A DNA stretch of 53,519 nucleotides from Candidatus Yanofskybacteria bacterium RIFCSPLOWO2_01_FULL_42_49 (GTDB lineage: Bacteria; Patescibacteriota; Minisyncoccia; 2-02-FULL-40-12; GWA2-44-9), in the NCBI GenBank assembly GCA_001795615.1, contig MGKI01000008.1, positions 1 to 53,519 on the forward strand, in the 5' to 3' direction. Positions 2,807 through 45,386 of this stretch are shown piece after piece. How positions within the stretch are numbered: position 1 is the first letter of the stretch; each line of letters begins with the position of its first letter. The position numbers and the translations under genes are program-made. The notes beneath the pieces were generated by a model. That model saw only the letters and a list, made by a program, of their open reading frames with translations, made no database searches and had not been told where the DNA came from.

Positions 2807-3886
2807 CTAATTATTCTTAAGTTTCTCCGCATTCGTAAGAATTTCTTCCACCATTTTATCAGCCACGCTGTGGGTAGGAACTTGTTCGCAAGCGCTGCGT
2901 TCAAATATATTTTTAAGCGTATCATAGATGCACGCAACCTTGCGAAGCGTACGTTCGCGTTCATAGCCGTTGAGCTCACGCTCACCCGCTATGTTTATGA
3001 GTCCGCCGGCGTTAATCGCGTAGTCAGGCGCATAGAGGATACCGCGAGTAAAAAGAGTATCGCCGTGTGTCGGAGTGGCAAGTTGATTATTCGCTGCGCC
3101 TGCCACAATACGACACTGAAGCTCGGGAATCGTTGCGTCATTTAAAACTGCTCCCAGGGCACAGGGTGAATAGACATCCACTTTTTGGCAATGAATAATA
3201 TGTGGCTCTACAACTTGAGCACCTTGGAATTTAGCCAAGGCTCGTTCTACCAAGCGATTATCGGTATCCGCGATTATGAGCCGCGCGCCTTGCTCGTAAA
3301 GAAGGTTGGCGAGACAAAAGCCGACTTTACCAAGACCTTGAATGGCAACAGAGCGGTCAGAAATAGTGTCATTTCCAAAAATTGTTTCAAGACATGCCCG
3401 AATGCCATAAAGCACGCCAAGCGAAGTAACCGGTGAAGGATCACCAGAACCTTTCACGTCGCCATGGAGACCTTCGGAGCGGCCATTTACGAAAAGCGTT
3501 TCTTTAGCAATAACCTCAATGTCTGCAACTGTAATACCCACATCTTCACCCGTGAAAAATGCACCATTAAAATAGTTCAGGTACTGCCCATAAACACGGA
3601 GGTAGGCCTCGGTCTTGTTCTTTTTGGGATCGCCGACCAAAACCGCTTTGCCACCGCCGAGTTTAAGTCCGGCAAGTGCAGCTTTATAAGTCATGCCACG
3701 TGAGAGGCGAAGTGCGTCAGTGATGGCCGCAAGATCATTTGGGTAAAGATACATCCGTGTCCCGCCAAGCGCGGGTCCGAGGATATCATTGTGAATCGCA
3801 ACGAAACCGTGAAGTCCTGTCTGCTCATCATTGATCATGGTCAGTAACTTGTGACCCTTGAAGTCGGGAAGTGTCCGGAAATCCAT
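2807..3886 (-). CDS. Leucine dehydrogenase (Glu/Leu/Phe/Val dehydrogenase family)
   Basis: 359 aa. Contains the GPALGGTRMY and KAALAGLKLGGGKAV motifs and a GLGKVG Rossmann signature. Confidence 0.85.
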   Translation of the reverse strand: MDFRTLPDFKGHKLLTMINDEQTGLHGFVAIHNDILGPALGGTRMYLYPNDLAAITDALRLSRGMTYKAALAGLKLGGGKAVLVGDPKKNKTEAYLRVYGQYLNYFNGAFFTGEDVGITVADIEVIAKETLFVNGRSEGLHGDVKGSGDPSPVTSLGVLYGIRACLETIFGNDTISDRSVAIQGLGKVGFCLANLLYEQGARLIIADTDNRLVERALAKFQGAQVVEPHIIHCQKVDVYSPCALGAVLNDATIPELQCRIVAGAANNQLATPTHGDTLFTRGILYAPDYAINAGGLINIAGERELNGYERERTLRKVACIYDTLKNIFERSACEQVPTHSVADKMVEEILTNAEKLKNN

Positions 3887-4037
3887 AAATTCCCTTTCAT
3901 TTGTTAGAATAAAAATGTACCGTTTTTATTCTAGTCCTGTTTCAAGAAATAGGCAACATCGCGTCCAGTTAACCATATGAGGTAACAAATCTGATAAGAT
4001 GGGGTAACCAAGGTTAACCATCTTAATTAAATCCCCA

Positions 4038-6239
4038 TTATTGGGGATTTTGGATATATGCATCTATGCTTTTTTCAATTTGATCAGGAAAATTTGCTGC
4101 CGGTTCAACTAAATTTCTTCCGTAAATTTCCCTTACAATCGTCTTAAACACTGGCAATGCCGCTTTAGCGCCGGTCTCGCTACCGCCAAGTTTTCTATTA
4201 TCATCATAACCGATTCTTACGGCCACAGTAATGCCAGTAGGGCCATATGTAGACCCAACAAAGAGAGCGTCTCTGAAGTCATTAGTAGTTCCCGTTTTTC
4301 CCATGACCGGAACGGGGAAATTCTCAAGAGTCAAAGAATAAGCCGTTCCACCCGGGATTCTCACCGTACCTCTTAGACCTTCTTGTATAAGTTCCAGATG
4401 GGCTTCGTAGAATGGGGCGACTATCGTTTGGAGATTTGCCTCAAAAATAACCTCGTTCGCATTGCCGGTAACCTTTCTGATTATGTAGGGTTCGGCAAGC
4501 ATGCCCGATGCCATGGCCCGATAAGCATTCGCCAGTTCAAGAAGATTTACTTCCGACGCGCCTATTGCGGTTGTAACATACGGCTGAAGCTCTGTTTTGA
4601 TTCCTAAAACTTTGGCAATGCTTATGATATCCTTAATGCCACCAACTTGCAGGGTCAACCCCACTGTTGCAGCATTTCTAGATTCAAATAGTGCTCTGCG
4701 CAAAGTCACACTTCCTTTGTATTTGCCATCATAGTTATGAATTATGTGTCTTGGCCTGTTCGGGCCCATATATAAGAACAGGGGAATATCCGGAATAGTA
4801 TCTTCCAGCGTCCAAAAATGGGTTATTGCGGCAAAAAATACGAATGGCTTAAAAGCTGATCCGGGCTGTCTTAATGAGTGTCTCGCGCGATCCAGATCAG
4901 AATAAACAAGGCCCTTTGATTTATAATTTTTCCTCCCGCCGACTTCCGCAAGAATCGCAGCATCGCTGTTTCTTAAAACAATAACCGACCCCTGAATAAT
5001 ATCTTTGCCCTCAGGGTGGCGCCCTTCAAAAAGTCTAAGTCCTTCTTCAAGAGCATCATTGGTGATTTTCTGGATTTCAAGGTCGCTTGTGGAAAAAATC
5101 TTAACTCTTCCATCAAACAGATTATCTGTGTTTACTCCGGTCAAAGATAATTCCTGGAGAATATTACCCACAACTGACGGAGCATCAGTGAAACCGCGTT
5201 TATCTTCCGGTAATGGCGGATTTTCCTGTTTAAATTTTTCCGATTCGTTAGAGCTTAAATAATTATTCTTGACCATGAGGTCAAGAATCTCATTTCTCCG
5301 GCTTATGCGGTTTAAATTTTCAGAGAAATCGGAAGTCGGGGCATATCTGCTGGGATTTTTAACGATACCAGCCAGCAAAGCCGCTTCGCCATGATTCAGT
5401 TGACTCACCTCTTTCTTAAAGTAATAGAGAGAGGCGGCTTTTATCCCGTATACTTTTCGAAAATATGTATAACTTAAAAATCTGGCCAAAATTTCATCTT
5501 TTGTCCTAAGTTTAGAGCCGAAGTATTGCGGTTTTGCAAGTTCTGCTTCCAACCATATAGCCAATCGTAATTCCTCGAGCTTAATGAGGTACCTTCTTGG
5601 AAGCAAGCTCCACGAACTGCTTTCTGTTTTATTGACGGTGTAGTTAATATGGTTCCTATAATAAAGGCCAACGATCTGGTCAGTGATTGTAGAAGCTCCT
5701 TGCTGAACGATAATCGTGATCTCTCCTTTTTGAATTAATGTTCTTAACGAACTGTTGGAATTTCTGCCGACCGCCCTTAACAACAACGCATCCCAATCTA
5801 CCCCGTTGTGTTGGTAAAAATCCTTATCTTCGGCAGACAAAAAAGCGTTTCTAACGGGAACGGTAATTTCGCTCGGTCTGATTATCAGTCTGTATTCTCT
5901 GGCTAAATTTATTATCGGTTTTTCTCGAGCATCATAGATCACGCCGATCTGGGGCACATCGAAATTAACAAACGACTGGAGGTCTGGCACATTGTCACGA
6001 TTATAAAATATGTAATGAGCAATAAGACCGATGGAAATTAGTCCAGTTGTCAGGCTCATCAAAAGAATCCAGACAATGACAATGCCAGGCCATCCGAGAC
6101 AATAGAACAAAGACCAGATGAATTTTCCCAGAGTCATGCCGGGAGGGCCTTTTTGAGGGATCAATATTTTTCCCTTTTCAAAGAGCTTATAACATGAGTA
6201 AGTACCACATTTCATTGTTAAAGTAAATGCGATAAACAA
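4038..6239 (-). CDS. Class A penicillin-binding protein (glycosyltransferase GT51 plus transpeptidase)
   Basis: EDKDFYQHNGVD and QGASTITDQ (GT51) are present, with SAFKPF (SxxK) and KTGTTND (KTG). There is an N-terminal TM segment. The true start may be an internal Met (M9 or M35). Confidence 0.9.
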   Translation of the reverse strand: MFIAFTLTMKCGTYSCYKLFEKGKILIPQKGPPGMTLGKFIWSLFYCLGWPGIVIVWILLMSLTTGLISIGLIAHYIFYNRDNVPDLQSFVNFDVPQIGVIYDAREKPIINLAREYRLIIRPSEITVPVRNAFLSAEDKDFYQHNGVDWDALLLRAVGRNSNSSLRTLIQKGEITIIVQQGASTITDQIVGLYYRNHINYTVNKTESSSWSLLPRRYLIKLEELRLAIWLEAELAKPQYFGSKLRTKDEILARFLSYTYFRKVYGIKAASLYYFKKEVSQLNHGEAALLAGIVKNPSRYAPTSDFSENLNRISRRNEILDLMVKNNYLSSNESEKFKQENPPLPEDKRGFTDAPSVVGNILQELSLTGVNTDNLFDGRVKIFSTSDLEIQKITNDALEEGLRLFEGRHPEGKDIIQGSVIVLRNSDAAILAEVGGRKNYKSKGLVYSDLDRARHSLRQPGSAFKPFVFFAAITHFWTLEDTIPDIPLFLYMGPNRPRHIIHNYDGKYKGSVTLRRALFESRNAATVGLTLQVGGIKDIISIAKVLGIKTELQPYVTTAIGASEVNLLELANAYRAMASGMLAEPYIIRKVTGNANEVIFEANLQTIVAPFYEAHLELIQEGLRGTVRIPGGTAYSLTLENFPVPVMGKTGTTNDFRDALFVGSTYGPTGITVAVRIGYDDNRKLGGSETGAKAALPVFKTIVREIYGRNLVEPAANFPDQIEKSIDAYIQNPQ

Positions 6240-6302
6240 TTTTACTTATCGATATTTTTATGATAAAATAAACAAAATAGTTGCTAGCTGCATAGTTTCT
6301 AT

Positions 6303-6374
6303 CCCTTCGTAGCTTAATGGATAAAGCAGGGCTCTTCTAAGGCCTTGATGGGGGTTCGATTCCCTCCGAAGGGA
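6303..6374 (+). tRNA. tRNA-Arg (anticodon UCU)
   Basis: Manual cloverleaf. Acceptor cccttcg/cgaaggg, D stem gctt/aagc, anticodon stem gggct/ggcct with loop cTTCTaa, T arm ggggg-ttcgatt-ccctc, discriminator A. Confidence 0.9.
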
Positions 6375-6384
6375 CATAAAAAAC

Positions 6385-6416
6385 AAAAAACAGGTTATCT
6401 TGATAATCTGTTTTTT
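6385..6416 (+). terminator. Hairpin with T-run after tRNA-Arg
   Basis: aaaaaacag...ctgtttttt with inner gttatc/gataat pairing, followed by gttttc. Confidence 0.6.
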
Positions 6417-6518
6417 GTTTTCTCATCGGAGAAAATAAACTATTCCATTGCGTAAAATCGCAGATAGTAATACTATTTTCTTTAGTTCTGGATACGGTAA
6501 GACAGAGGCAGGGTTCGA

Positions 6519-6869
6519 GTGGAAAGAAAAAACCGCGCTGAAACGATCGGCAGAAAATCAGAGAATAAAGTTCACCGCGCTCTTGATATTTTACGGTATC
6601 GTTGGAAAGAAGTTGTGAGGTTTATTCACGCTGAAAAAAATGGGGAACTCGATCGGGAACACATTGACTTTCTCATCATACTTCGTTCCAATCTGTCACT
6701 GGCATTGCAAGTTAAGTCCTCCCGCTGGCGCGCAAAGATTCATCTAAAAAAGTATCCCCATATTAAGGGCGTCATCTGGATAAGAGAACAGGACACGCCG
6801 CAAGAAATAGCAGAACGAATTAAAAAAATTATCCTTTTATACTACAAAAAGATAAAAAGGGTCAGTTAA
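6519..6869 (+). CDS. Hypothetical small protein, possible PD-(D/E)XK nuclease fold
   Basis: 116 aa with a GTG start. The pattern GRKSE...HIDFLII...LQVKSS fits E...D...(Q)xK of YraN/Hjc-like nucleases. Similarity is weak. Confidence 0.45.
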   Translation: MERKNRAETIGRKSENKVHRALDILRYRWKEVVRFIHAEKNGELDREHIDFLIILRSNLSLALQVKSSRWRAKIHLKKYPHIKGVIWIREQDTPQEIAERIKKIILLYYKKIKRVS

Positions 6870-8371: not shown

Positions 8372-10204
8372 GTGAAACCAAATAAAATCATCGCCGTATT
8401 TTTCTTAGCTGGAGTCAGTGTGTTGTCTTTTTTTACCGTTAAAGCATTGGCTGATATTTCCGATATCCAATACCCCGTCTCCCAGCTTGGAAATTGCACA
8501 AGTGAAACCGACTGCCGAAGCTATTGCGATAAACCCGAAAACATTACGGCTTGTTTGAATTTTGCCGAACAGAACAATTTGATGTCTAAAGAAGAGATCG
8601 AAATGGCTAAAAAGTTCTCGGCCGTTGGTAATAAAGGCCCCGGCGGATGCACGGGTAAGGATTCTTGTGAAACATATTGCAACGATATTTCTCATATCGA
8701 CGAGTGCGTTTCGTTTGCCGAACAAAACAACTTAATGCCGCCGGACAAATTACGCGAAGCTCAAAAGGTCCGCGATGCTATAAAGCGGGGTGCCAAACCT
8801 CCGGCTTGCGGCAGCAAAAAATCCTGTGACAGTTACTGTGAAGATCCAAGCCACATGGAAGAATGCATTACCTTTGCCTCTGAGGCCGGCCTGATGGAAG
8901 GCAAGGAGAAAGAAGACGCCCAAAAAATGCTATCAGCCATGAAAAAAGGAATTAAACCACCGCCTTGCCGAGGCAAACAGGCTTGCGATGAATATTGCCA
9001 ACAGCCGGACAACATGGAAACATGCATGAATTTTGCAATTGAAGCCGGATTTATGGGCGATAAAGAAAAAGAAGACGCCCAAAAAATGCTATCAGCGATC
9101 AAGAAAGGAGTAAGGCCGCCTAATTGCAGAGGGCGGGAGGAATGCGACAGTTATTGCCAAAGCGATGAACATTTTGAAGAATGCACTAATTTTGCGGAAG
9201 CGGCCGGTTTTATGAATGCCAGTGACGCGGAAATGGCGAGAAAAACAAAAGGCAAGGGCCCCGGCGGATGCAAGGGTAAAGAAGAGTGCGAATCATTTTG
9301 CAATAATCCGTCCAACCAGGAAACGTGTTTTAAGTTCGCTGAAGAGAATGGCATGATACCGGAAGAAGAACTCCAAAAAATGAAAGAGGGGATGAGCCGA
9401 ATGCGCGAAGATGTTGATAAAATTCCGAGTGAAGCAAAAGACTGTCTGAAATCTGCTCTGGGAGAAGAAACGGTTAATAAAATCCGGTCGGGAGAACTTA
9501 CGCCTGGACCTCAACTGGGAAATGCAATTCAAGATTGTTTCCGAAAAATGCCTCAGCAACCGGAAAATATGCGCCTGCCTGCCGGCAGGCAGGGCGGGCA
9601 AGGTGAACAAGAAGGAATGCCGCCACCGGAAGGAAGAGAGTTTCGCGGCGGTCCCGGAGGTTGTTCTACTCCCGAAGAATGTCAAGATTACTGCTCCCAA
9701 AATCCGGAAGCTTGTCAAAATTTTCAAGAACCTGAACATGGACAAAGACCGATGGGTCCACCCGGTCCGGATCAAAATTTCCAACCGCCGAGAGGGCCAA
9801 GAGAAGGGGAAGAACCGCACGAGCCGCCTTTATTTGAACGGCGGATGCCATCTGGTGAACAGATGCCTCCGAAATTTCAGCGGCCAGAACAAGAGATGTA
9901 TAGACCCGGCACTGAGGAAGGATCTTACCCTCCAAGTTATGATGGCCAGCGGCCACCACAAGAATTCAATCAGCCCATGATGCCCAACCAACCGCCGATT
10001 GGAAGTGGGGTAATTCCGCCACCTGAATTTGACCGTCAGGTACCCATGGAACAATTCCAGCCATCCGAACCCATGCCACAGATAGAACAGCAACCGCAAG
10101 GAGAGATAGCGCCACCACCTCCTCCACCGTCAGAGCCGGCGCCTCAATCTCTGTTAAACAACAAATACCTCGGGGCTATTTTCAGACTCCTTTCGGGTAA
10201 CTGA
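8372..10204 (+). CDS. Secreted cysteine-rich tandem-repeat protein with a Pro/Gln/Glu-rich tail
   Basis: 610 aa with a GTG start and a signal/TM segment. About 7 repeats of about 52 aa follow the pattern C-x6-C-x3-C-x9-C-x2-FAE(Q/A)N.LM. The C-terminal 200 aa are P/Q/E-rich. Confidence 0.75.
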   Translation: MKPNKIIAVFFLAGVSVLSFFTVKALADISDIQYPVSQLGNCTSETDCRSYCDKPENITACLNFAEQNNLMSKEEIEMAKKFSAVGNKGPGGCTGKDSCETYCNDISHIDECVSFAEQNNLMPPDKLREAQKVRDAIKRGAKPPACGSKKSCDSYCEDPSHMEECITFASEAGLMEGKEKEDAQKMLSAMKKGIKPPPCRGKQACDEYCQQPDNMETCMNFAIEAGFMGDKEKEDAQKMLSAIKKGVRPPNCRGREECDSYCQSDEHFEECTNFAEAAGFMNASDAEMARKTKGKGPGGCKGKEECESFCNNPSNQETCFKFAEENGMIPEEELQKMKEGMSRMREDVDKIPSEAKDCLKSALGEETVNKIRSGELTPGPQLGNAIQDCFRKMPQQPENMRLPAGRQGGQGEQEGMPPPEGREFRGGPGGCSTPEECQDYCSQNPEACQNFQEPEHGQRPMGPPGPDQNFQPPRGPREGEEPHEPPLFERRMPSGEQMPPKFQRPEQEMYRPGTEEGSYPPSYDGQRPPQEFNQPMMPNQPPIGSGVIPPPEFDRQVPMEQFQPSEPMPQIEQQPQGEIAPPPPPPSEPAPQSLLNNKYLGAIFRLLSGN

Positions 10205-15873: not shown

Positions 15874-17925
15874 ATGAGTGCTACCAAAATAATCAATGTT
15901 CTAAGGGGTGATAAGTTTGAAGAACTTTTAGGTATTGTAAAAGACACCGAGGCTTCGGAAGTGATATTTGTATTGCCTAAAAAAACTAAAGCCTTCGGAA
16001 CGGAAAAACAGTTTGCCCTGCTTAGCAAGGAAATAAAAGACAGCGGCAAGCTGGTTGCTTTCTTGTGTTCTAACCCTGAAACAAACGACTTGGCTAAAAA
16101 ATATAACTTTGACACTCTGTCTACCAAAACAGAATCCGGTTCCTTAAGAAGAGTCAGACAAGCCCAGCCGAGTATAGTTGCAACTGCTGCCAAAAACAAC
16201 GGCACGAGTGATGACGATACGGAGGAGATAGACGATTCCGAAGAAACAGACGAAGAACATAAAGAATCAGAAAATGAACTTGGGGAATTTGTAAAAGACG
16301 AGGAAACGCTCCCAGAAATTTCTGACGAACAAATAAAAAACGAGGAATCCTATGACGACGAAGAAAAAGACCTTAAAGAGGAGGAGGAGGAGGCGCCATT
16401 CGGAACAAAAGTAGATGACGATGGAAATGTCATATACGATGAAGGAGAGGAAAATATTGCCGAAGAGACAGCCTCCTCAGACAATACTGGAGAATTCCAA
16501 GTTATCGGAGCGGTTTCTAAAAAAATGGGAGATGTAATTCCGCCCACATTCGGTAAAAACATAAAAATCATCCAAAAAAGCAAGCGACCGGTTAAACTTG
16601 AGACTAAAATTGGACAGTCGGGCCTTGATTGGAATAAGGGGGAAGAATCAGAAAATATATGGAGCGGAATCTCAAAACCATCCGTGCCTCGGTCTTCGGT
16701 TTTTAAAAAATTTAAATTATTCAAAAACCGAATACCTAAAAGTGGTCTTTTAAAATTCAACCGCGATAATTCGCAAAGACGGTGGATCGGGGTTTTATCT
16801 CTGGCATCAATACTTATTTTAGCTTCTATCGTTTTCTTTACGACCGGAAGCGCCAAAATAAACATCAAGCCAAGGTCAGAAAAACTCGACCTTCAGCTGA
16901 AGGTCGCCATTTCGCCTAACTTTGCATCTGTTGACGATTCTTTCAATCGAATACCGGGCCAGCTTTTCAAAATAAACAAATCCGCAGTTGACGAATTCAA
17001 CGCTACTGCCGAGAAAGATGCTGTTCAGAAATCAAGGGGAACGCTGACTATATATAATGAGTACGGTACCTCGCCCCAGCCGCTGGTTGCCACTACCCGA
17101 TTTGAGTTTATTCAAGAAGATAAAGTGTCTGGTTTTGTCTTTAGAACGCTTCAGTCCGTTATCGTGCCAGGGATGAAAGTTGAAAATGGCATAATCACTC
17201 CAGGAAAAATTAGCGTAGAGGTCATCGCCGACAAAGCCGGACAAGCATACAATATTCCGGCCGGCAGTTTTGGTATCGTAGCTTGGAGAGAAAAAGGCGA
17301 TACGGCAAGATACGAAAAAATATACGGCAAATCATCCGAACCCATGCATGGGGGAATACTTGGAAAAGCAAAAGTAGTTTCAGAGTTTGACTACAACAAT
17401 GCCAAGGATCAGCTTACCGCCAAGGTTAAAAACGAAATCAACGAGTCACTGAAGTCTCAATCAGCCAGCCTTGAATTGCCGCCTGGTATTGAAGCAAAAA
17501 TAGATTCAGCAGAATCAACCGCTGGAATTGATGATGCCGCCGATACTTTTACTGTCACAGTTGAAGGTTCCATTGTCACCATCGGTTACAAAAAGGAGGA
17601 CTTAATGGCTCTTGTCACCCAATATGTAGATCGGACTAAAGATCTGATGGCCGTTCCTGAAAAACTTGAATTATCATATACGGATGTTGCCATAAATTCA
17701 GCCGATAATACTCTCAGGATCACGGTAAATATAAGCGGAAACGGTTATGCGAAAATAGATAAAGAAGATGTAATTGGCAACCTAGCGGGCAAGAACGAAG
17801 CCCAAATAAAAGACTACCTGGGTTCTATAAATAATATTGATTCCGCAAAAGTAGTCCTCTCTCCGTTTTGGGTCAAAAAAATTCCCAGAAATCCACAAAG
17901 GGTAGATATATTATTGACTTTCTAG
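15874..17925 (+). CDS. Large hypothetical membrane protein with an acidic low-complexity segment
   Basis: 683 aa. A D/E-rich stretch includes the DNA repeat (gag)5 at about 16379-16393. A single TM segment (WIGVLSLASILILASIVFF) precedes a large extracytoplasmic domain. No family recognised. Confidence 0.65.
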   Translation: MSATKIINVLRGDKFEELLGIVKDTEASEVIFVLPKKTKAFGTEKQFALLSKEIKDSGKLVAFLCSNPETNDLAKKYNFDTLSTKTESGSLRRVRQAQPSIVATAAKNNGTSDDDTEEIDDSEETDEEHKESENELGEFVKDEETLPEISDEQIKNEESYDDEEKDLKEEEEEAPFGTKVDDDGNVIYDEGEENIAEETASSDNTGEFQVIGAVSKKMGDVIPPTFGKNIKIIQKSKRPVKLETKIGQSGLDWNKGEESENIWSGISKPSVPRSSVFKKFKLFKNRIPKSGLLKFNRDNSQRRWIGVLSLASILILASIVFFTTGSAKINIKPRSEKLDLQLKVAISPNFASVDDSFNRIPGQLFKINKSAVDEFNATAEKDAVQKSRGTLTIYNEYGTSPQPLVATTRFEFIQEDKVSGFVFRTLQSVIVPGMKVENGIITPGKISVEVIADKAGQAYNIPAGSFGIVAWREKGDTARYEKIYGKSSEPMHGGILGKAKVVSEFDYNNAKDQLTAKVKNEINESLKSQSASLELPPGIEAKIDSAESTAGIDDAADTFTVTVEGSIVTIGYKKEDLMALVTQYVDRTKDLMAVPEKLELSYTDVAINSADNTLRITVNISGNGYAKIDKEDVIGNLAGKNEAQIKDYLGSINNIDSAKVVLSPFWVKKIPRNPQRVDILLTF

Positions 17926-23737: not shown

Positions 23738-23835
23738 TTCGCTGTTGATTTTAGCATAAAAATAGTTTAACTTCAACTAAGAAAATTAGAACACAACTGG
23801 TTTGGCCAAGATTGAGGTGGCCGGCAAATTGTAAT

Positions 23836-24837
23836 ATGGCAAAGATAGGAATTGACCTAGGCACAACTAATACCGTAGTATTCGTCCCCAAAAAGGGGAT
23901 AGTGATAAATGAACCATCCGTCGTGGCCATTTCGGTTTTGGATAACAAAATAATCGCCGTCGGAAATATGGCCAAAGAAATGATAGGCCGTACTCCGGAT
24001 AGCATTATCGTTTCAAAACCGCTTGTTGACGGCGCGATCGCGGATTATCGGATAACGGAGGCGATGATCAAACATTTTATAAAAAAATCCGGAGGATTTT
24101 TAAGTTTTGTGAAACCGGAAGTCCTTATTTCCGTACCGGCCGGTATTACTTCAACCGAAAAAAGAGCCGTGATAGAAGCCGCTTTAAATGCGGGAGCAAA
24201 GTCGGTGTACCTCGTTAAAGAACCGGTCCTTGCGGCAATCGGCGCAAAAATTCCGATAAACAGCCCTGCGGGCAATATGATTTTGAATATCGGCGGCGGC
24301 ACTACGGAGCTGGCCGTCATTTCCCTCGGAGGCATAGTAAGCTGGTCATCGGTAAGAATTGGCGGGAATAAATTGGATCAGGCGATTGTTGGATACATCA
24401 AGAAAAAACACGGACTCGCTATAGGAGAGAGAACGGCTGAATTGATAAAAATCAACATCGGCAGCGCCATCAAAGAATCCCAGGAAGATAGAATTAACAT
24501 TAAAGGAAGAGACCTGGCCACTGGCTATCCCAAGACAGTAGAAATAACTTCAAATGAAATAACCGAGGCCATAAGCGAGCATTTAACCGAAATAGTGCAG
24601 ATTATAAAAAGCGTCCTTGAAGTTACGCCTCCGGAATTATGCTCTGATATTATGGACAGAGGAATTATGATATCAGGCGGGGGAGCAATGTTAAAAAATA
24701 TCTCTACGCTTATAACCAGAGTTACGGGCGTACCGGCCCGGGTCGCCGACGACCCGTTATTCTGCGTCGCCCGAGGAACGGGAATTGTGTTGTCCAACTT
24801 GGATAGTTATAAGAGGAATGTGATGGCGAAAAGGTAA
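23836..24837 (+). CDS. mreB: Rod-shape protein MreB
   Basis: MAKIGIDLGTTNTVVFV, an actin-fold phosphate motif, with later GGGTTELAVISLGG and ISGGGAML. Confidence 0.93.
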   Translation: MAKIGIDLGTTNTVVFVPKKGIVINEPSVVAISVLDNKIIAVGNMAKEMIGRTPDSIIVSKPLVDGAIADYRITEAMIKHFIKKSGGFLSFVKPEVLISVPAGITSTEKRAVIEAALNAGAKSVYLVKEPVLAAIGAKIPINSPAGNMILNIGGGTTELAVISLGGIVSWSSVRIGGNKLDQAIVGYIKKKHGLAIGERTAELIKINIGSAIKESQEDRINIKGRDLATGYPKTVEITSNEITEAISEHLTEIVQIIKSVLEVTPPELCSDIMDRGIMISGGGAMLKNISTLITRVTGVPARVADDPLFCVARGTGIVLSNLDSYKRNVMAKR

Positions 24838-24856: not shown

Positions 24857-25112
24857 CGAGGCCATCAGATAATTTTTTACGCCTTACGCTCCATTAACAA
24901 ATCCAGCGATAATTTCTCATTGTTCAGACAAAAATTTAGCATCCGTTCCTCCTTCGGCAAGCTCAGGATTTTCCGGCTAAATTTTATGGAAGATTAGGTA
25001 AAATTAACATATGTTAATTTTACCTAATCTTTGCTTACCTGAACAATTTCTAAATTATCTTGGATTTGTGATAAAGGAGCGTAAACGCTAGAAAAATTAT
25101 CTGATGGCCTCG
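24857..25112. repeat. 256-bp compound inverted repeat (MITE-like or large RNA hairpin)
   Basis: The outer arms 24857-24927 and 25039-25112 begin with a perfect 21-bp match (cgaggccatcagataattttt) and are otherwise about 80% complementary. The centre 24990-25031 is a perfect 42-bp palindrome. A side hairpin spans 24931-24985. Confidence 0.85.
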
Positions 25113-25256: not shown

Positions 25257-25679
25257 TTACGGCTGAAAGAGCCGTGCCACCGTTCTTGATTGAAACTCGA
25301 TCTCATGCACGGAACCGTTGCCGGCGGCTCCGTTGAAGCCAAGCTTGCCGAGAAGATTCTCGATCTCCGGCATATGGCTCACCGCAATGACGGCGGTGAA
25401 GTCCGCGTTATCGACGGCGAATTGCGCCAAACTTGTCGCCGTATTCTCGGATGTCCCGCATCTCAGCCACGACTTGGGCAGAACTTCGCCCAATCCCAAG
25501 GTCTGCCGGATGATCTCCGCGGTCTCAACAGCTCTGGGAAGTTGAGATGTGAGTAGAACGGTCTTGGAAGCGTCAAGCCCCAGTGACTTGAAGAAATCGG
25601 CCGTCCTGGAAATTTGACCTCGTCCGAAATCCATCAGCCCACCCATCGCATCGCCGTGTCGCACTAAAAAGATTCTCAT
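25257..25679 (-). CDS. sixA: Phosphohistidine phosphatase SixA-like (histidine phosphatase superfamily), GC-rich
   Basis: 140 aa. Contains MRIFLVRHGDA (the RHG motif), SQLPRAVETAEI and VSHMPEI. G+C by hand count is 32/60 and 36/60 in 25261-25380, against about 19/60 in neighbouring genes. Confidence 0.8.
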   Translation of the reverse strand: MRIFLVRHGDAMGGLMDFGRGQISRTADFFKSLGLDASKTVLLTSQLPRAVETAEIIRQTLGLGEVLPKSWLRCGTSENTATSLAQFAVDNADFTAVIAVSHMPEIENLLGKLGFNGAAGNGSVHEIEFQSRTVARLFQP

Positions 25680-25790: not shown

Positions 25791-25910
25791 ATTAGAAAAA
25801 TTAACCTAATTATTCTAATTAATCTAATTATTCTAAACTTTTGAAATTTATAATTTGAGATTCCTGCCTGCCGGCAGGCAGGTGTTTAGAAATTAGAAAT
25901 TAGAAATTTA
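25791..25910. repeat. AT-rich word hairpin with a central 20-bp GC palindrome
   Basis: ctaattattctaattaatctaattattctaaa faces tttagaaattagaaattagaaattt. The centre is cctgcctgccggcaggcagg (25863-25882). Confidence 0.8.
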
Positions 25911-28036: not shown

Positions 28037-29212
28037 TTGCTAAAGATCGGAATTGAGTGTGAAAATCTGGAGGACCCCAAGTCGCGTTGGGGGATAGGCA
28101 AGATAACTTTGAATTTGCTCAAAGAATTCGCAAAAAATCCCGAATGGCAGAAGAAATATAAGTTATACTTATACTTCAAAAGTCGTATTCCTAATGATGA
28201 AGTTCTCAAAAGCCCAATATTTGTAAAGAGGGTATCGGGTTTTCCTTCGTTTAATATTTTCTACCACATCTTAATGCCCCTGCGAGCCATGGTAGACAGA
28301 GTGAATTGGATGTTTTTCCCGGCCTATCAGTTGCCGCCGCTATATTTAGGTAAATCTATTGTTGTACTAACAGAAGACGCTTATTACGAATATAAATACG
28401 GCACTTTACCATTTCGTTATAAATTATCCTACAGAATATTTACGAACTGGGCGGCAAAATTTGCGACAAAAATTTTAGCAATTTCCGAGACATCTAAAAA
28501 AGAGTTGGCAAGGATATATAAAATAAATCCGGATAAGATTTTTGTAAATTATTTGGGAATTGATACATTGCCCTTCTTCGCGCAAAGCTTCGAAGGACGA
28601 CAAACACAAGGTAATTACCTTTTGTTTGTCGGGCAGATGTTTCCGCGCCGCCACGCTAAAGAAACCATCCTGGCATTTGAAAAACTCCTTCGACAAAGCT
28701 CAGGACAAGTCCTCACAGAACATTCCAACATTCTGCAGAATGTTGGAATGTCAGAATTAAAATTAATTTTAATCGGACCGGATAAATATCCCGATCTGAT
28801 TATTAACCCGCTTGTGGCACAGGTGAATAAGCAGCTGGGCCGAGAGGCAATCGTACACAAAGATTATGTAAAAGATGAAGAACTTGTCGAATTATATGCT
28901 AGAGCAAGAGCATTGGTCTATGTCTCCGACAGGGAAGCGTTCGGGTTACCGCCAATGGAAGCTTTGTCATTTGGCGTCCCGCCGATTGTGATGGATAATG
29001 AATTGGGCCACGAACTTTTCGAGGACCACGCTTTTTATTCAAAAAGTGGAGAAGTTGACGATATCGCGGATACGATAAAGCAAGCATTAAGTGATGATAA
29101 CCCTTCGGCAGAGCTCAGGGCAAGAATAAAATCCGACGGCTCGGAATTTGTGAAGAAATACAATTGGAAAAGTTTCGCGGATTGTTGGTTCCAAATTATA
29201 AATGAAAAATAA
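28037..29212 (+). CDS. Glycosyltransferase family 4
   Basis: 391 aa with a TTG start. Contains YLLFVGQMFPRRH, LILIGPD and EAFGLPPMEALSFGVPPIV. Confidence 0.85.
   Translation: MLKIGIECENLEDPKSRWGIGKITLNLLKEFAKNPEWQKKYKLYLYFKSRIPNDEVLKSPIFVKRVSGFPSFNIFYHILMPLRAMVDRVNWMFFPAYQLPPLYLGKSIVVLTEDAYYEYKYGTLPFRYKLSYRIFTNWAAKFATKILAISETSKKELARIYKINPDKIFVNYLGIDTLPFFAQSFEGRQTQGNYLLFVGQMFPRRHAKETILAFEKLLRQSSGQVLTEHSNILQNVGMSELKLILIGPDKYPDLIINPLVAQVNKQLGREAIVHKDYVKDEELVELYARARALVYVSDREAFGLPPMEALSFGVPPIVMDNELGHELFEDHAFYSKSGEVDDIADTIKQALSDDNPSAELRARIKSDGSEFVKKYNWKSFADCWFQIINEK
28720..28751. repeat. Perfect 32-bp palindrome inside the GT4 CDS
   Basis: acattccaacattctg|cagaatgttggaatgt. An 18-bp palindrome attaaaatt|aattttaat follows at 28756-28773. 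Confidence 0.95.
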
Positions 29213-44049: not shown

Positions 44050-45369
44050 CTAATCGTTCTTGATGAAAAGCGTTATCTCCTGCCACATCAATGCTATTGC
44101 TGCCTTAACGGGAAGAATTGACAACATGTATTTTAAATCAACTAACTCTCTAATCACCCAGCCCCAGAAACCTTTTACATTTACGCCTCCCCAAAGATGG
44201 GCAAGTGCATATTTGCCGCCAACGGGGGCTATCCAAACATCAAAGAAGGGGTTATAGCTTACTAGCTTATCAGATTTTAGCGACCGCAAAATGTTTTTGG
44301 CTGCTATTTTGCCCTGCTCCACGGCAACATAAGCCAAAGCCGGAACTAATCTTCCGGTTTTCTGATCTTGAAATTCAACATTATCCCCCGCCGCGAAAAC
44401 ATTCGATAAGCCGGCAACCTTAAGACTGTCGTCAACGACTATTTTCCCGTTGCCGGCCAAAGACATGCTCGGCAAGTTTTTGAGAATATCCAGCGGTTTT
44501 ACTCCGGTAGTCCACACTACCAAATCAACATCTATGGTTTTTCCGTTCTTTAGTTTTATGTAATCGCTTCTGACTTCTTCAACCGCCGCTCCTTCCGTTA
44601 CCTCAACACCTAACCGGGTAAGCCGCTCCATTATAACAATCCGCTCTTTGTCTGAAATCATCGGCAATATTTTTGGAGCCGCTTCTATTAGAAGCACTCT
44701 CTCGCAACGACCCTTGATCCCGCGTGCTTGAGTAAATTTTTTGACGCAGCAAGTAAGTTCGGCGGCAACTTCAATTCCAGTGAAACCGGCGCCGATGACT
44801 GCAATTTTTACCCCGTAGTGAATTTTCCGAAATTCTTTTGGCGACTTCGTCGCAGTCGGAAAATCTACTACGGGGTTTATAGGCTCGCTTTTGACATCGC
44901 CTTCGCGTTGAGTTGCAAAAACCAACTCGTTTATTTTTTGATTCAGCGCCAGTCCGTTTTCTAAACTTTTAAAACTAAAGGCGTATTCTTTAACTCCGGG
45001 AACTCCAAAATCAGATGACTGGCTGCCGAGCGCGATTATCATATAGTCATAATCGAGTATCTCCCCTCCCCTGGTGGCAACTTTTTGATTCTCAACATCT
45101 ATGGAAAATATCTCCGCTTGGATAAATCTAATTTTCTTAGCAGAAAAAATATCCGAATATGGGATACATATCGTTTTCTTTAACCGAATGGCGAACGGAT
45201 CTTGTTTTAACCCATAAGCCGACGCCACTTCATATAAAGCTGGGACAAATAGGTGATAGCTGTTTTTGTCTACTAAAGTTATCTCGGCTTTACTTCCAAT
45301 CTTTTTTTCCAAATCTAAAGCGCAACGAATGCCACCAAATCCTCCCCCCAATATCAAAATTTTATGCAT
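44050..45369 (-). CDS. ndh: Type II NADH dehydrogenase (FAD/NAD pyridine-nucleotide disulfide oxidoreductase)
   Basis: KILILGGGFGGI, a second Rossmann motif KIAVIGAGFTGIE, and FAAGD. Confidence 0.88.
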   Translation of the reverse strand: MHKILILGGGFGGIRCALDLEKKIGSKAEITLVDKNSYHLFVPALYEVASAYGLKQDPFAIRLKKTICIPYSDIFSAKKIRFIQAEIFSIDVENQKVATRGGEILDYDYMIIALGSQSSDFGVPGVKEYAFSFKSLENGLALNQKINELVFATQREGDVKSEPINPVVDFPTATKSPKEFRKIHYGVKIAVIGAGFTGIEVAAELTCCVKKFTQARGIKGRCERVLLIEAAPKILPMISDKERIVIMERLTRLGVEVTEGAAVEEVRSDYIKLKNGKTIDVDLVVWTTGVKPLDILKNLPSMSLAGNGKIVVDDSLKVAGLSNVFAAGDNVEFQDQKTGRLVPALAYVAVEQGKIAAKNILRSLKSDKLVSYNPFFDVWIAPVGGKYALAHLWGGVNVKGFWGWVIRELVDLKYMLSILPVKAAIALMWQEITLFIKND

Positions 45370-45386
45370 AAAATTTACAACCCCTA

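Follow-up and report, generated by a model that had tools for sequence, protein, structure and literature searches.

Background

Several kinds of short palindromic DNA have been described in bacterial genomes. The autorepressors of the ArsR/SmtB family (SmtB, CzrA, CadC, HlyU) have 12-2-12 operators, inverted repeats with a free 2-bp centre that lie just upstream of the repressor's own gene. In REPtrons, repetitive extragenic palindromes (REPs) of 30-50 nt, located mostly outside genes near 3' ends, bracket a small dedicated gene, RAYT, whose product has an HUH/Y1 transposase domain. PMC3733652 gives a GTAG or CGTC tetranucleotide at one end of the palindrome as the mark of a REP. The Correia elements of Neisseria and bacterial miniature inverted-repeat transposable elements (MITEs) are small non-autonomous repeats that occur between and sometimes inside genes and can carry regulatory signals, MITEs being characterized by terminal inverted repeats around an internal segment and by a fixed target duplication. 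Rickettsia palindromic elements (RPEs), which are ~100-150 bp long and confined to Rickettsia, are in-frame palindromic DNA in the housekeeping genes of a reduced genome, tolerated as surface peptides. The CIRCE/HrcA and parS/ParB systems keep a near-invariant inverted repeat across divergent genomes together with a small DNA-binding partner, and parS is often found inside genes. The current study concerns a perfect 32-nt palindrome that lies in frame within a glycosyltransferase gene of Candidatus Yanofskybacteria bacterium RIFCSPLOWO2_01_FULL_42_49, on a stretch of 53,519 nt (contig MGKI01000008.1) that is referred to as the window.

Patescibacteria have tiny genomes with very few regulators and, to our knowledge, almost nothing is known about how their genes are controlled. 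The 32-mer belongs, as a solo copy, to a dispersed, insertion-prone family of palindromes, and we consider it likely that this family is the 13-2-13 site of an approximately 90-residue protein with the ArsR/SmtB winged helix-turn-helix (wHTH) fold. The 13-2-13 layout corresponds to the 12-2-12 operators of the ArsR/SmtB proteins. The element and its host gene have the following features.

28037-29212, + strand: host gene, a GT4/GT-B glycosyltransferase of 391 aa (Pfam Glycos_transf_1, 74 bits)
28720-28751, no strand: perfect 32-nt palindrome ACATTCCAACATTCTG-CAGAATGTTGGAATGT, solo copy of the dispersed Patescibacteria palindrome
28721-28753, + strand: palindrome-encoded insert of 11 codons, H229-S239 (HSNILQNVGMS), from alignments and the AlphaFold model
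28722-28734, + strand: left half-site ATTCCAACATTCT
28735-28736, no strand: central dinucleotide, variable in the family, GC in the window
28737-28749, + strand: right half-site AGAATGTTGGAAT

A palindrome family dispersed among Patescibacteria

One genome per species was scanned with the pattern ATTCCAACATTCTNNAGAATGTTGGAAT, that is, ATTCCAACATTCT-NN-AGAATGTTGGAAT. The 26-base core was found in at least 119 genome contigs, which came from many Patescibacteria classes and from a few high-GC metagenome-assembled genomes (MAGs) of Verrucomicrobiota. The matching Patescibacteria MAGs bore the labels Saccharibacteria, Paceibacterota, Doudna-, Nomura-, Zambryski-, Wolfe-, Kaiser-, Brenner-, Giovannoni- and Moraniibacteria. 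The core, although AT-rich, was invariant over genome GC contents of 0.25-0.60. A first-pass annotation of this DNA had called for the 32-mer to be sought elsewhere in the genome; the window (53.5 kb) contained no second copy of this dispersed palindrome, whereas the same core recurred in the contigs just described and the exact 32-mer was present in one homologue of the host gene (P0089).

The logo constructed from 173 sites read (A)AC-ATTC-y-N-A-y-ATTCT-NN-AGAAT-r-T-N-r-GAAT-GT(T), in which the inner and outer parts of the core were invariant, positions 5, 6 and 8 varied and the centre was free. The window sequence at 28720-28751 matched the core ATTCyNAyATTCT-NN-AGAATrTNrGAAT with its AC/GT extension without a single mismatch, and is thus a member of the family, the copies of which were 28-50 nt long. 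The central dinucleotide was GC in 57 copies, CA in 31, TG in 22 and TA in 14, and since all four occur, the centre need not be palindromic. Arm-versus-arm differences amounted to 1.19 within a site and 1.31 between the sites of one locus, and the asymmetric sites placed C opposite A and A opposite G, often at positions 5-6 of sites flanking the wHTH gene, with no wobble pairs. This pattern is better accounted for by recognition of the site by a protein dimer than by selection on a stem. Perfect copies made up 48% of the solo sites and 32% of the gene-flanking sites, a difference that is suggestive only (n = 21).

Exact copies also occurred in eight Verrucomicrobiota/Kiritimatiellia MAG contigs (L012, L021, L030, L031, L041, L046, L048 and L054) with a GC content of 0.52-0.59. 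Two of these high-GC contigs, L030 and L012, also carried the wHTH gene, and L046 had an in-frame copy in a PrmC-like gene. Unless the contigs were mis-binned, these copies suggest transfer between phyla. No copy was found in the viral contigs of IMG/VR, the plasmids of PLSDB or the phages of GenBank. The palindrome, its literal sequence and its peptide were without description in the literature searched, a limited library that leaves room for a prior report.

The 32-mer is far beyond chance. In a Markov-1 simulation of the window (200 runs), the expected number of perfect palindromes per window was 0.85, 0.29 and 0.055 for arms of 8, 9 and 10 nt, respectively; arms of 12 nt appeared in 1 of the 200 simulated windows (0.005 per window) and longer arms in none, and the analytic expectation for 16-nt arms was ~1e-5. 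The view of the first-pass annotation that such a palindrome in a coding region would hardly arise by chance was therefore correct. Its concern that the palindrome might be an assembly or cloning artefact can be set aside, because the host gene, read on 12 contigs, was base-for-base identical together with its palindrome in four independent ENA assemblies, and homologues conserve the element.

The associated wHTH gene

When all open reading frames (ORFs) within 1.5 kb of the copies were clustered, the sole recurrent neighbour was a family of ~90-aa wHTH proteins, found at 22 loci. Among the ORFs within 1.5 kb of 128 copies there was no transposase family, RAYT included. Four of five wHTH proteins scored above the cut-off for Pfam HTH_5 (ArsR) (up to 39 bits versus 22), the remaining one scoring 21.3, and the family profile matched PDB structures of HlyU, CadC, ArsR, AspA, CzrA and SmtB with E values down to 4e-10. 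In the structural model (predicted local distance difference test, pLDDT, 93), helices spanned residues 4-28, 34-41 and 45-57, and were followed by a wing of two strands (61-74) and a last helix (76-89), an order that, in the model, is read as the ArsR/SmtB layout a1-a2-a3-aR-b1-b2-a5. The top Foldseek matches were CadC, SqrR, SmtB, CzrA and HlyU (template modelling score ~0.7), with MarR-family regulators ranking alongside. NCBIfam NF033788 (ArsR/SmtB) gave 42-46 bits against a cut-off of 55, and there is no family specific to these proteins. The family comprised 6,151 clusters at E <= 1e-8, bearing only generic names ('winged helix-turn-helix domain-containing protein', 'MarR/ArsR family regulator', 'hypothetical protein'). 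With regard to the metal- or metalloid-sensing site of ArsR/SmtB proteins (CXC in a3, or His/Asp/Glu in a5), the alignments, judged by eye, had no CXC motif and only one semi-conserved Cys.

The position of the palindrome relative to this gene was nearly constant. At the loci found through the palindrome, one copy lay mostly ~20-46 nt upstream of the wHTH ATG and a second lay over the stop codon. Because the 3' copy overlaps the stop codon, the last residues of the wHTH protein (…KTFQHS* or …FLRMLE*) are encoded by the palindrome, and this arrangement held in subfamilies that are only ~40% identical. The association was also examined in the reverse direction: 80 metagenome loci were retrieved by two peptide patterns from the N-terminal half and helix-turn-helix region of the protein, with no use of the DNA motif, and a match was defined as at most 6 mismatches in 26, the upstream copy being sought within 120 nt of the ATG. 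A palindrome was present 16-98 nt upstream of the start codon at 73 of 76 loci, and 77 of 78 had a copy at the 3' end, the offset being the same in most of them and the stop codon mostly overlapped. The chance expectation for such a match is ~0.04 per Mb. In the high-GC contigs L030 and L012, the GC content of the wHTH gene was 0.51-0.53, yet the AT-rich site was still exact; in both, a TTGACA -35 box abuts the site, placing the upstream copy between the box and the start codon. As far as sequence can indicate, this placement at the wHTH promoters is that of an autoregulatory inverted repeat.

One locus, L009, had three copies within 700 nt (3709-4397) around a single wHTH gene, including a compensated variant, TCTAAC…GTTAGA. 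A 50-nt perfect palindrome of another variant lay at position 838 of L009.

The host gene and its insert

The product of the host gene has both a Glycos_transf_1 domain and the two-Rossmann GT-B fold. The gene is part of a conserved envelope-glycan cluster, which in the window encodes GT4, GT2, GT4, a Wzy_C-domain protein and GT2, with LytR_cpsA_psr next in syntenic loci. There were 434 homologues at E <= 1e-10, and the named ones among the 120 listed were from Yanofskybacteria and other Patescibacteria. In 48 aligned homologues the segment from FEKL to LKLIxxG was patchy: many carried HSNIL(Q/E)NVGMS or related peptides and many, from both main clades, had only ~5 residues between the two blocks. 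The gap was 23 residues in the window protein versus 6 in P0012, which is 74% identical and, in a codon alignment, has no palindrome insert. The alignment thus agrees with the first-pass annotation that, compared with many GT4 homologues, the segment is inserted. The ~20 additional residues that it had reported are also present, but not as a single unit: the 11-codon palindrome was one event, and an 8-codon insert specific to a clade was another.

The AlphaFold model of the host protein (mean pLDDT 88, predicted template modelling score 0.84) had low confidence in only two segments. Residues 225-234, with pLDDT values below 50, belong to the loop that carries the palindrome peptide (blocks 221-230 and 231-240 average 50 and 55), which in the C-terminal Rossmann domain connects helix 207-222 with strand 242-246. 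Residues 180-189, also below 50, form the inter-domain linker next to a second, 34-nt palindrome. According to the model, the window copy is an in-frame insert in a low-confidence loop of a GT-B enzyme. It lies inside the ORF, has no T-run and was not called by a terminator scan, so that the stem-loop and U-tract of an intrinsic terminator are not both present.

The glycosyltransferase site in related lineages

The window and L111 both had the perfect CCAAC version of the palindrome at the GT4 site. As L111 was retrieved with the exact pattern, the core part of the synonymous-site conservation between the two was discounted as evidence. The unbiased comparisons at this site were P0008 and P0009 (74-77% identical), which were fetched by protein; the insert was present in both with one arm mismatch, at a variable position, so that 1 of 28 non-centre bases differed at a gene-wide nucleotide identity of 0.77-0.78. 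P0024 had a different yet perfectly symmetric variant, ATTCTCATATTCT-TG-AGAATATGAGAAT, at the same codon position, and this variant was also found beside wHTH genes elsewhere. In P0058 the CCAAT arms were perfect, but a second insert of 33 nt separated them exactly at the centre. P0089 (52% identical) carried the exact 32-mer near its C-terminus and in another frame (NIPTFCRMLEC), as part of a perfect palindrome of 46 nt. In P0012 and many other homologues the site was without an insert. Homologues with the same residues and no symmetry in the DNA, which the first-pass annotation had named as a refutation, were limited to decayed copies (P0068 and the canonical site of P0089), whereas other lineages, P0024 among them, were perfectly symmetric.

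If the element were no more than a passive passenger in decay, the symmetric variant in P0024 would be left unexplained. Three processes would account for it, 1) tracking of a lineage-specific site preference, 2) conversion from other copies and 3) re-insertion.

The 33-nt insert of P0058, the gene of which is on L208, has the sequence CCTCCTTCGCATGAAGCTACGGATGGACAAGGT and encodes PPSHEATDGQG. This peptide resembles the SFAKASEGQG and NPSEALAKEG inserts found elsewhere in GT4 homologues, and the window linker FAQSFEGRQ.

Copies within and between genes

A simple ORF caller placed 35 of the 128 copies inside genes. The intergenic copies were mostly a few tens of bases past a stop codon (18 between convergent, 9 between divergent and 47 between tandem genes), and 59 of 102 (58%) had a T-rich run on at least one side. 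Twenty housekeeping hosts of intragenic copies were found. The hosts, assigned by reading the sequence, included PurL, MurC, MurD, UvrC, dihydroorotase, PGK, class II aldolase (FBA), TrmD, MnmA, GltX, another GT4 and, in a Kiritimatiellia contig, PrmC. Three TsaD genes had the element at three different positions, each being without it where the others carry it, a pattern that shows repeated independent acquisition.

With a GC or CA centre the palindrome is free of stop codons in all six frames. Of 22 clearly internal copies, 19 were in the HSNILxNVGM frame, 2 read TFQHSxECWNV and 1 IPTFxRMLEC; this bias points to selection on the encoded peptide. When the flanks of the 128 copies were compared with shuffled pairs, there was no target duplication of fixed length or offset of the kind that marks a MITE. 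Direct repeats of at least 5 nt at the flanks were in mild excess (13 versus ~5), and the lone 10-bp flank repeat (L024), with its period of 41 nt, is at odds with a simple insertion in frame.

Two further loci had pairs of copies, L057 at 6252-6616 and L077 at 178-969, in which each copy was trailed by the same extra sequence (~50 nt and ~30 nt, respectively). The L077 pair brackets a 268-aa Rossmann-type ORF, not a wHTH gene. These pairs may be duplications or the result of recombination between copies.

Other palindromes of the window

The first-pass annotation had treated three consecutive palindromes as one unit. All three were found, in frame in ORF 28037-29212 and with the sequences described, but only the 32-mer is significant. 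The remaining features of the host gene are the following.

28598-28631, no strand: near-perfect 34-nt palindrome, 17-nt arms with 1 mismatch
28688-28711, + strand: separate 8-codon insert LRQSSGQV, present among the aligned proteins only in the window protein, P0004 and P0006
28702-28713: 12-nt palindrome aggacAAgtcct with 5-nt arms, inside the clade-specific 8-codon insert
28756-28773, no strand: AT-only 18-nt palindrome attaaaatt-aattttaat with 9-nt arms, in the conserved ELKLILIG codons

The 12-mer, with its 5-nt arms, is trivial. Palindromes of the 18-mer type are expected ~0.35 times per window (Markov-1). The segment 28756-28773 was not palindromic in L111, L001, P0008, P0009 or P0012, and since homologues have no symmetry there, the 18-mer is compatible with chance and is probably outside the element.

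The 34-nt palindrome at 28598-28631 had been overlooked by the first-pass annotation. The conserved YLLFVG codons make up its 3' arm, and its 5' arm (RQTQGN) falls in the hypervariable inter-domain linker. From the sequence, the 5' arm resembles a templated copy of the 3' arm in inverted orientation; by our own estimate the chance expectation is ~1.6e-4 per window. Short tandem repeats fill this linker in homologues, for example GATACGA three times in P0008, and runs of the AAACAC type in P0009 and in L001.

Perfect palindromes with arms of 8 nt or more were in general excess in the window (7 versus ~1.2 expected), those at 16887-16906 (CGACCTTCAGCTGAAGGTCG) and 45357-45376 (AAATTTTATGCATAAAATTT) being among them. 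A 42-nt perfect AT-rich palindrome, AAGATTAGGTAAAATTAACATATGTTAATTTTACCTAATCTT, at 24990-25031, lies between the convergent ORFs 23812-24837 (+) and 25257-25679 (-), and could be a terminator acting in both directions or a further protein site.

A second shared family was the perfect 20-nt palindrome CCTGCCTGCCGGCAGGCAGG, which occurred in the window at 9574-9593 and 25863-25882, in L116 at 1411-1430 and in L180 at 2472-2491. The copy at 9574-9593 is in frame in ORF 8372-10204, where it encodes LPAGRQGG, and the copy at 25863-25882 lies between genes, at 30 nt upstream from the first gene for a GT4. The GT4 homologue P0022 had an insert, YPPAGRAGYP, similar to the CCTGCCTGCCGGCAGGCAGG peptide.

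Discussion

The proposed mechanism is as follows. One wHTH monomer would occupy each 13-nt half-site and leave the two central bases uncontacted, so that a dimer would bind the palindrome. Copies would arise by copy-and-paste or by templated repair, and the only ones to survive within genes would be those in permissive loops, in the frame that gives the hydrophilic HSNILxNVGM. An intragenic copy would be kept at the level of DNA by binding or by conversion from other copies and, when bound, might form a roadblock within the operon for envelope glycans, at a point upstream of the Wzy-like gene.

Several observations weigh against interpretation of the 32-mer as a site for this protein, 1) the link between the wHTH protein and the palindrome is one of association, 2) no covariation was found between the wHTH columns and the variable half-site positions across 97 distinct proteins, in which the recognition helix was nearly invariant, 3) there is no wHTH gene in the window, nor any promoter-like signal on the + strand within 200 nt of the window copy, 4) L111, L076/L116 and L079/L098 were retrieved with the exact pattern, so that the identity of the core in them is by ascertainment, 5) the palindrome has decayed in P0068 and at the canonical site of P0089, 6) symmetry often continues into the variable flanks, up to 50 nt, which a protein site does not need, 7) the 3'-end and convergent placement and the T-runs suit a hairpin, a terminator or a safe landing site better than a promoter operator and 8) binding alone explains neither the predicted stable hairpin and the T-runs at 3' ends, nor the symmetry of the flanks and the insert at the hairpin tip.

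We regard it as rather improbable that the GT4 copy is the passive passenger of a selfish mobile palindrome, similar to a REP or an RPE, that sits without function in a permissive loop, the wHTH gene being just a frequent landing neighbour or its cargo and the wHTH protein contributing nothing to the upkeep or spread of the copies. In-frame insertions in many unrelated essential genes, with three positions in TsaD alone, are what such an element would produce, as are a sequence without stops in any frame, a frame bias that fits selection after random insertion, decay in some lineages, REP-like placement at 3' ends and between convergent genes, and symmetry that reaches into variable flanks. 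However, the site is present at fixed distances from 150 of 154 testable wHTH gene ends, and even where subfamilies share only 40% identity it encodes the final residues and the stop codon of the wHTH protein, which is not the result of random landing. Moreover, the surroundings of the copies contained neither a transposase or RAYT nor a consistent target duplication, the AT-rich core is invariant over genomes of 25-60% GC, and the orthologous GT4 site in P0024 has a perfectly symmetric variant. A role as a nucleic acid hairpin, either a bidirectional terminator or an mRNA-stabilising or RNase-target stem-loop through which the GT4 copy would modulate translation or decay of the operon transcript, seems more unlikely still. 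The predicted structure is a 14-bp stem with a 4-nt loop (-13.6 kcal/mol as DNA, z = -6.3; z = -3.4 for RNA in context), the stem is lengthened by variable complementary flanks, many intergenic copies close behind stop codons are flanked by A- and T-runs, and the second insert of P0058 falls exactly at the hairpin tip. Yet the window copy is inside an ORF and has no T-run, the arms flanking wHTH genes often differ at positions 5-6, producing C·A and A·G mismatches, and the arms of a site are no more similar to each other than to those of other sites at the locus. Stem sequence, beyond mere pairing, is conserved across phyla, and the Rfam covariance models, run on 13 loci that carry copies, detected tRNAs only and no matching family.

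Two other explanations are very improbable. The first is that the palindrome arose in the host gene alone, by hairpin-templated template switching or as an artefact of assembly or cloning. The variable arm at 28598-28631 does resemble an inverted copy of conserved codons, which implies that local templated events probably occur in this gene, and the surplus of perfect palindromes in the window is in keeping with this; nevertheless, at least 119 unrelated contigs have the identical sequence, as do four independent assemblies of the host gene, and for the 32-mer a local origin or artefact is refuted. The second, equally hard to credit, is a DNA-uptake signal comparable to the DNA uptake sequences of Neisseria or the uptake signal sequences of Haemophilus. 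Patescibacteria are probably naturally competent, the same short sequence is common to many of their genomes, inverted pairs follow genes and coding copies are frame-biased. Against an uptake signal are the low density (one copy in the 53.5 kb of the window), the lack of enrichment of isolated half-sites outside the palindrome in the window (0 with at most 1 mismatch, 1 with 2 mismatches) and the invariable occurrence of the unit as a dimer with 2-nt spacing, and it leaves the tight bracketing of a gene for a cytoplasmic wHTH protein unexplained.

The reading of the palindrome as the site of the wHTH protein can be taken a step further, though only tentatively. Protein and palindrome could constitute a hitherto unrecognised kind of self-propagating pair without a recognisable nuclease or recombinase domain, in which the protein's own binding site is copied around the genome, an extension that we consider possible but doubtful. 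Such a pair would move between phyla and seed copies even in essential genes. Movement between phyla is suggested because both members occur in high-GC Kiritimatiellia/Verrucomicrobiota contigs, where the GC content of the gene has drifted upward and the site is exact. A genome-wide set of protein-bound sites would then be built by insertion, not by point mutation. Other palindrome families, such as CCTGCCTGCCGGCAGGCAGG and the SFAKASEG-type inserts, may behave likewise. The pairing of the wHTH protein with the palindrome across the superphylum is undescribed in the literature searched, and there is a substantial chance that the mechanism by which it spreads is new.

The wHTH protein and the palindrome offer a concrete, testable pair of regulator and site, the latter almost invariant across the superphylum. 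Genes that include the essential TsaD, PurL, MurC/D and UvrC have repeatedly gained the same 11-residue peptide by insertion of a palindrome at the DNA level. For annotation, the recurring peptides HSNILxNVGM, IPTFCRMLEC and TFQHSAECWNV should be regarded as derived from DNA and not as protein motifs, and protein alignments and phylogenies of Patescibacteria are affected, as the inserts come and go. The results also bear on how networks of binding sites spread; if the spread does depend on the wHTH protein, it would represent a new way for DNA to move.

Comparison with known systems

The associated wHTH protein shares the sequence signature and fold of the ArsR/SmtB autorepressors, and the upstream palindrome has the free 2-bp centre and the location of their operators. 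The differences are that no metal-site motif was seen by eye in the wHTH sequences, that a second site lies over the wHTH stop codon, and that sites are scattered through genomes, in frame in essential genes, and near-exact across a superphylum. Like REPs, the copies are palindromes of comparable length found mostly outside genes near 3' ends, and like REPtrons they bracket a small dedicated gene. However, that gene encodes a wHTH protein with no HUH/Y1 transposase domain, the copies begin (A)ACATTCC and lack the GTAG or CGTC tag, and the palindrome is common to classes and phyla, not species-specific, with a quarter of the copies intragenic.

The intragenic copies are reminiscent of RPEs in being in-frame palindromic DNA tolerated in housekeeping genes, but the element is much shorter (28-50 nt), is a perfect two-fold site and is linked to the gene for a DNA-binding protein. 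Correia elements and MITEs are similarly small and dispersed, but the palindrome family has neither an internal segment between terminal inverted repeats nor a fixed target duplication. CIRCE and parS resemble it in the near-invariance of the site and in the small DNA-binding partner; their sites, however, arise by point substitution at fixed loci, whereas the palindrome copies are insertions at many loci with symmetry extended into the flanks. By analogy, then, the element would be an ArsR-type operator at its own gene, with a REPtron-like architecture, that resembles an RPE when it lies within other genes.

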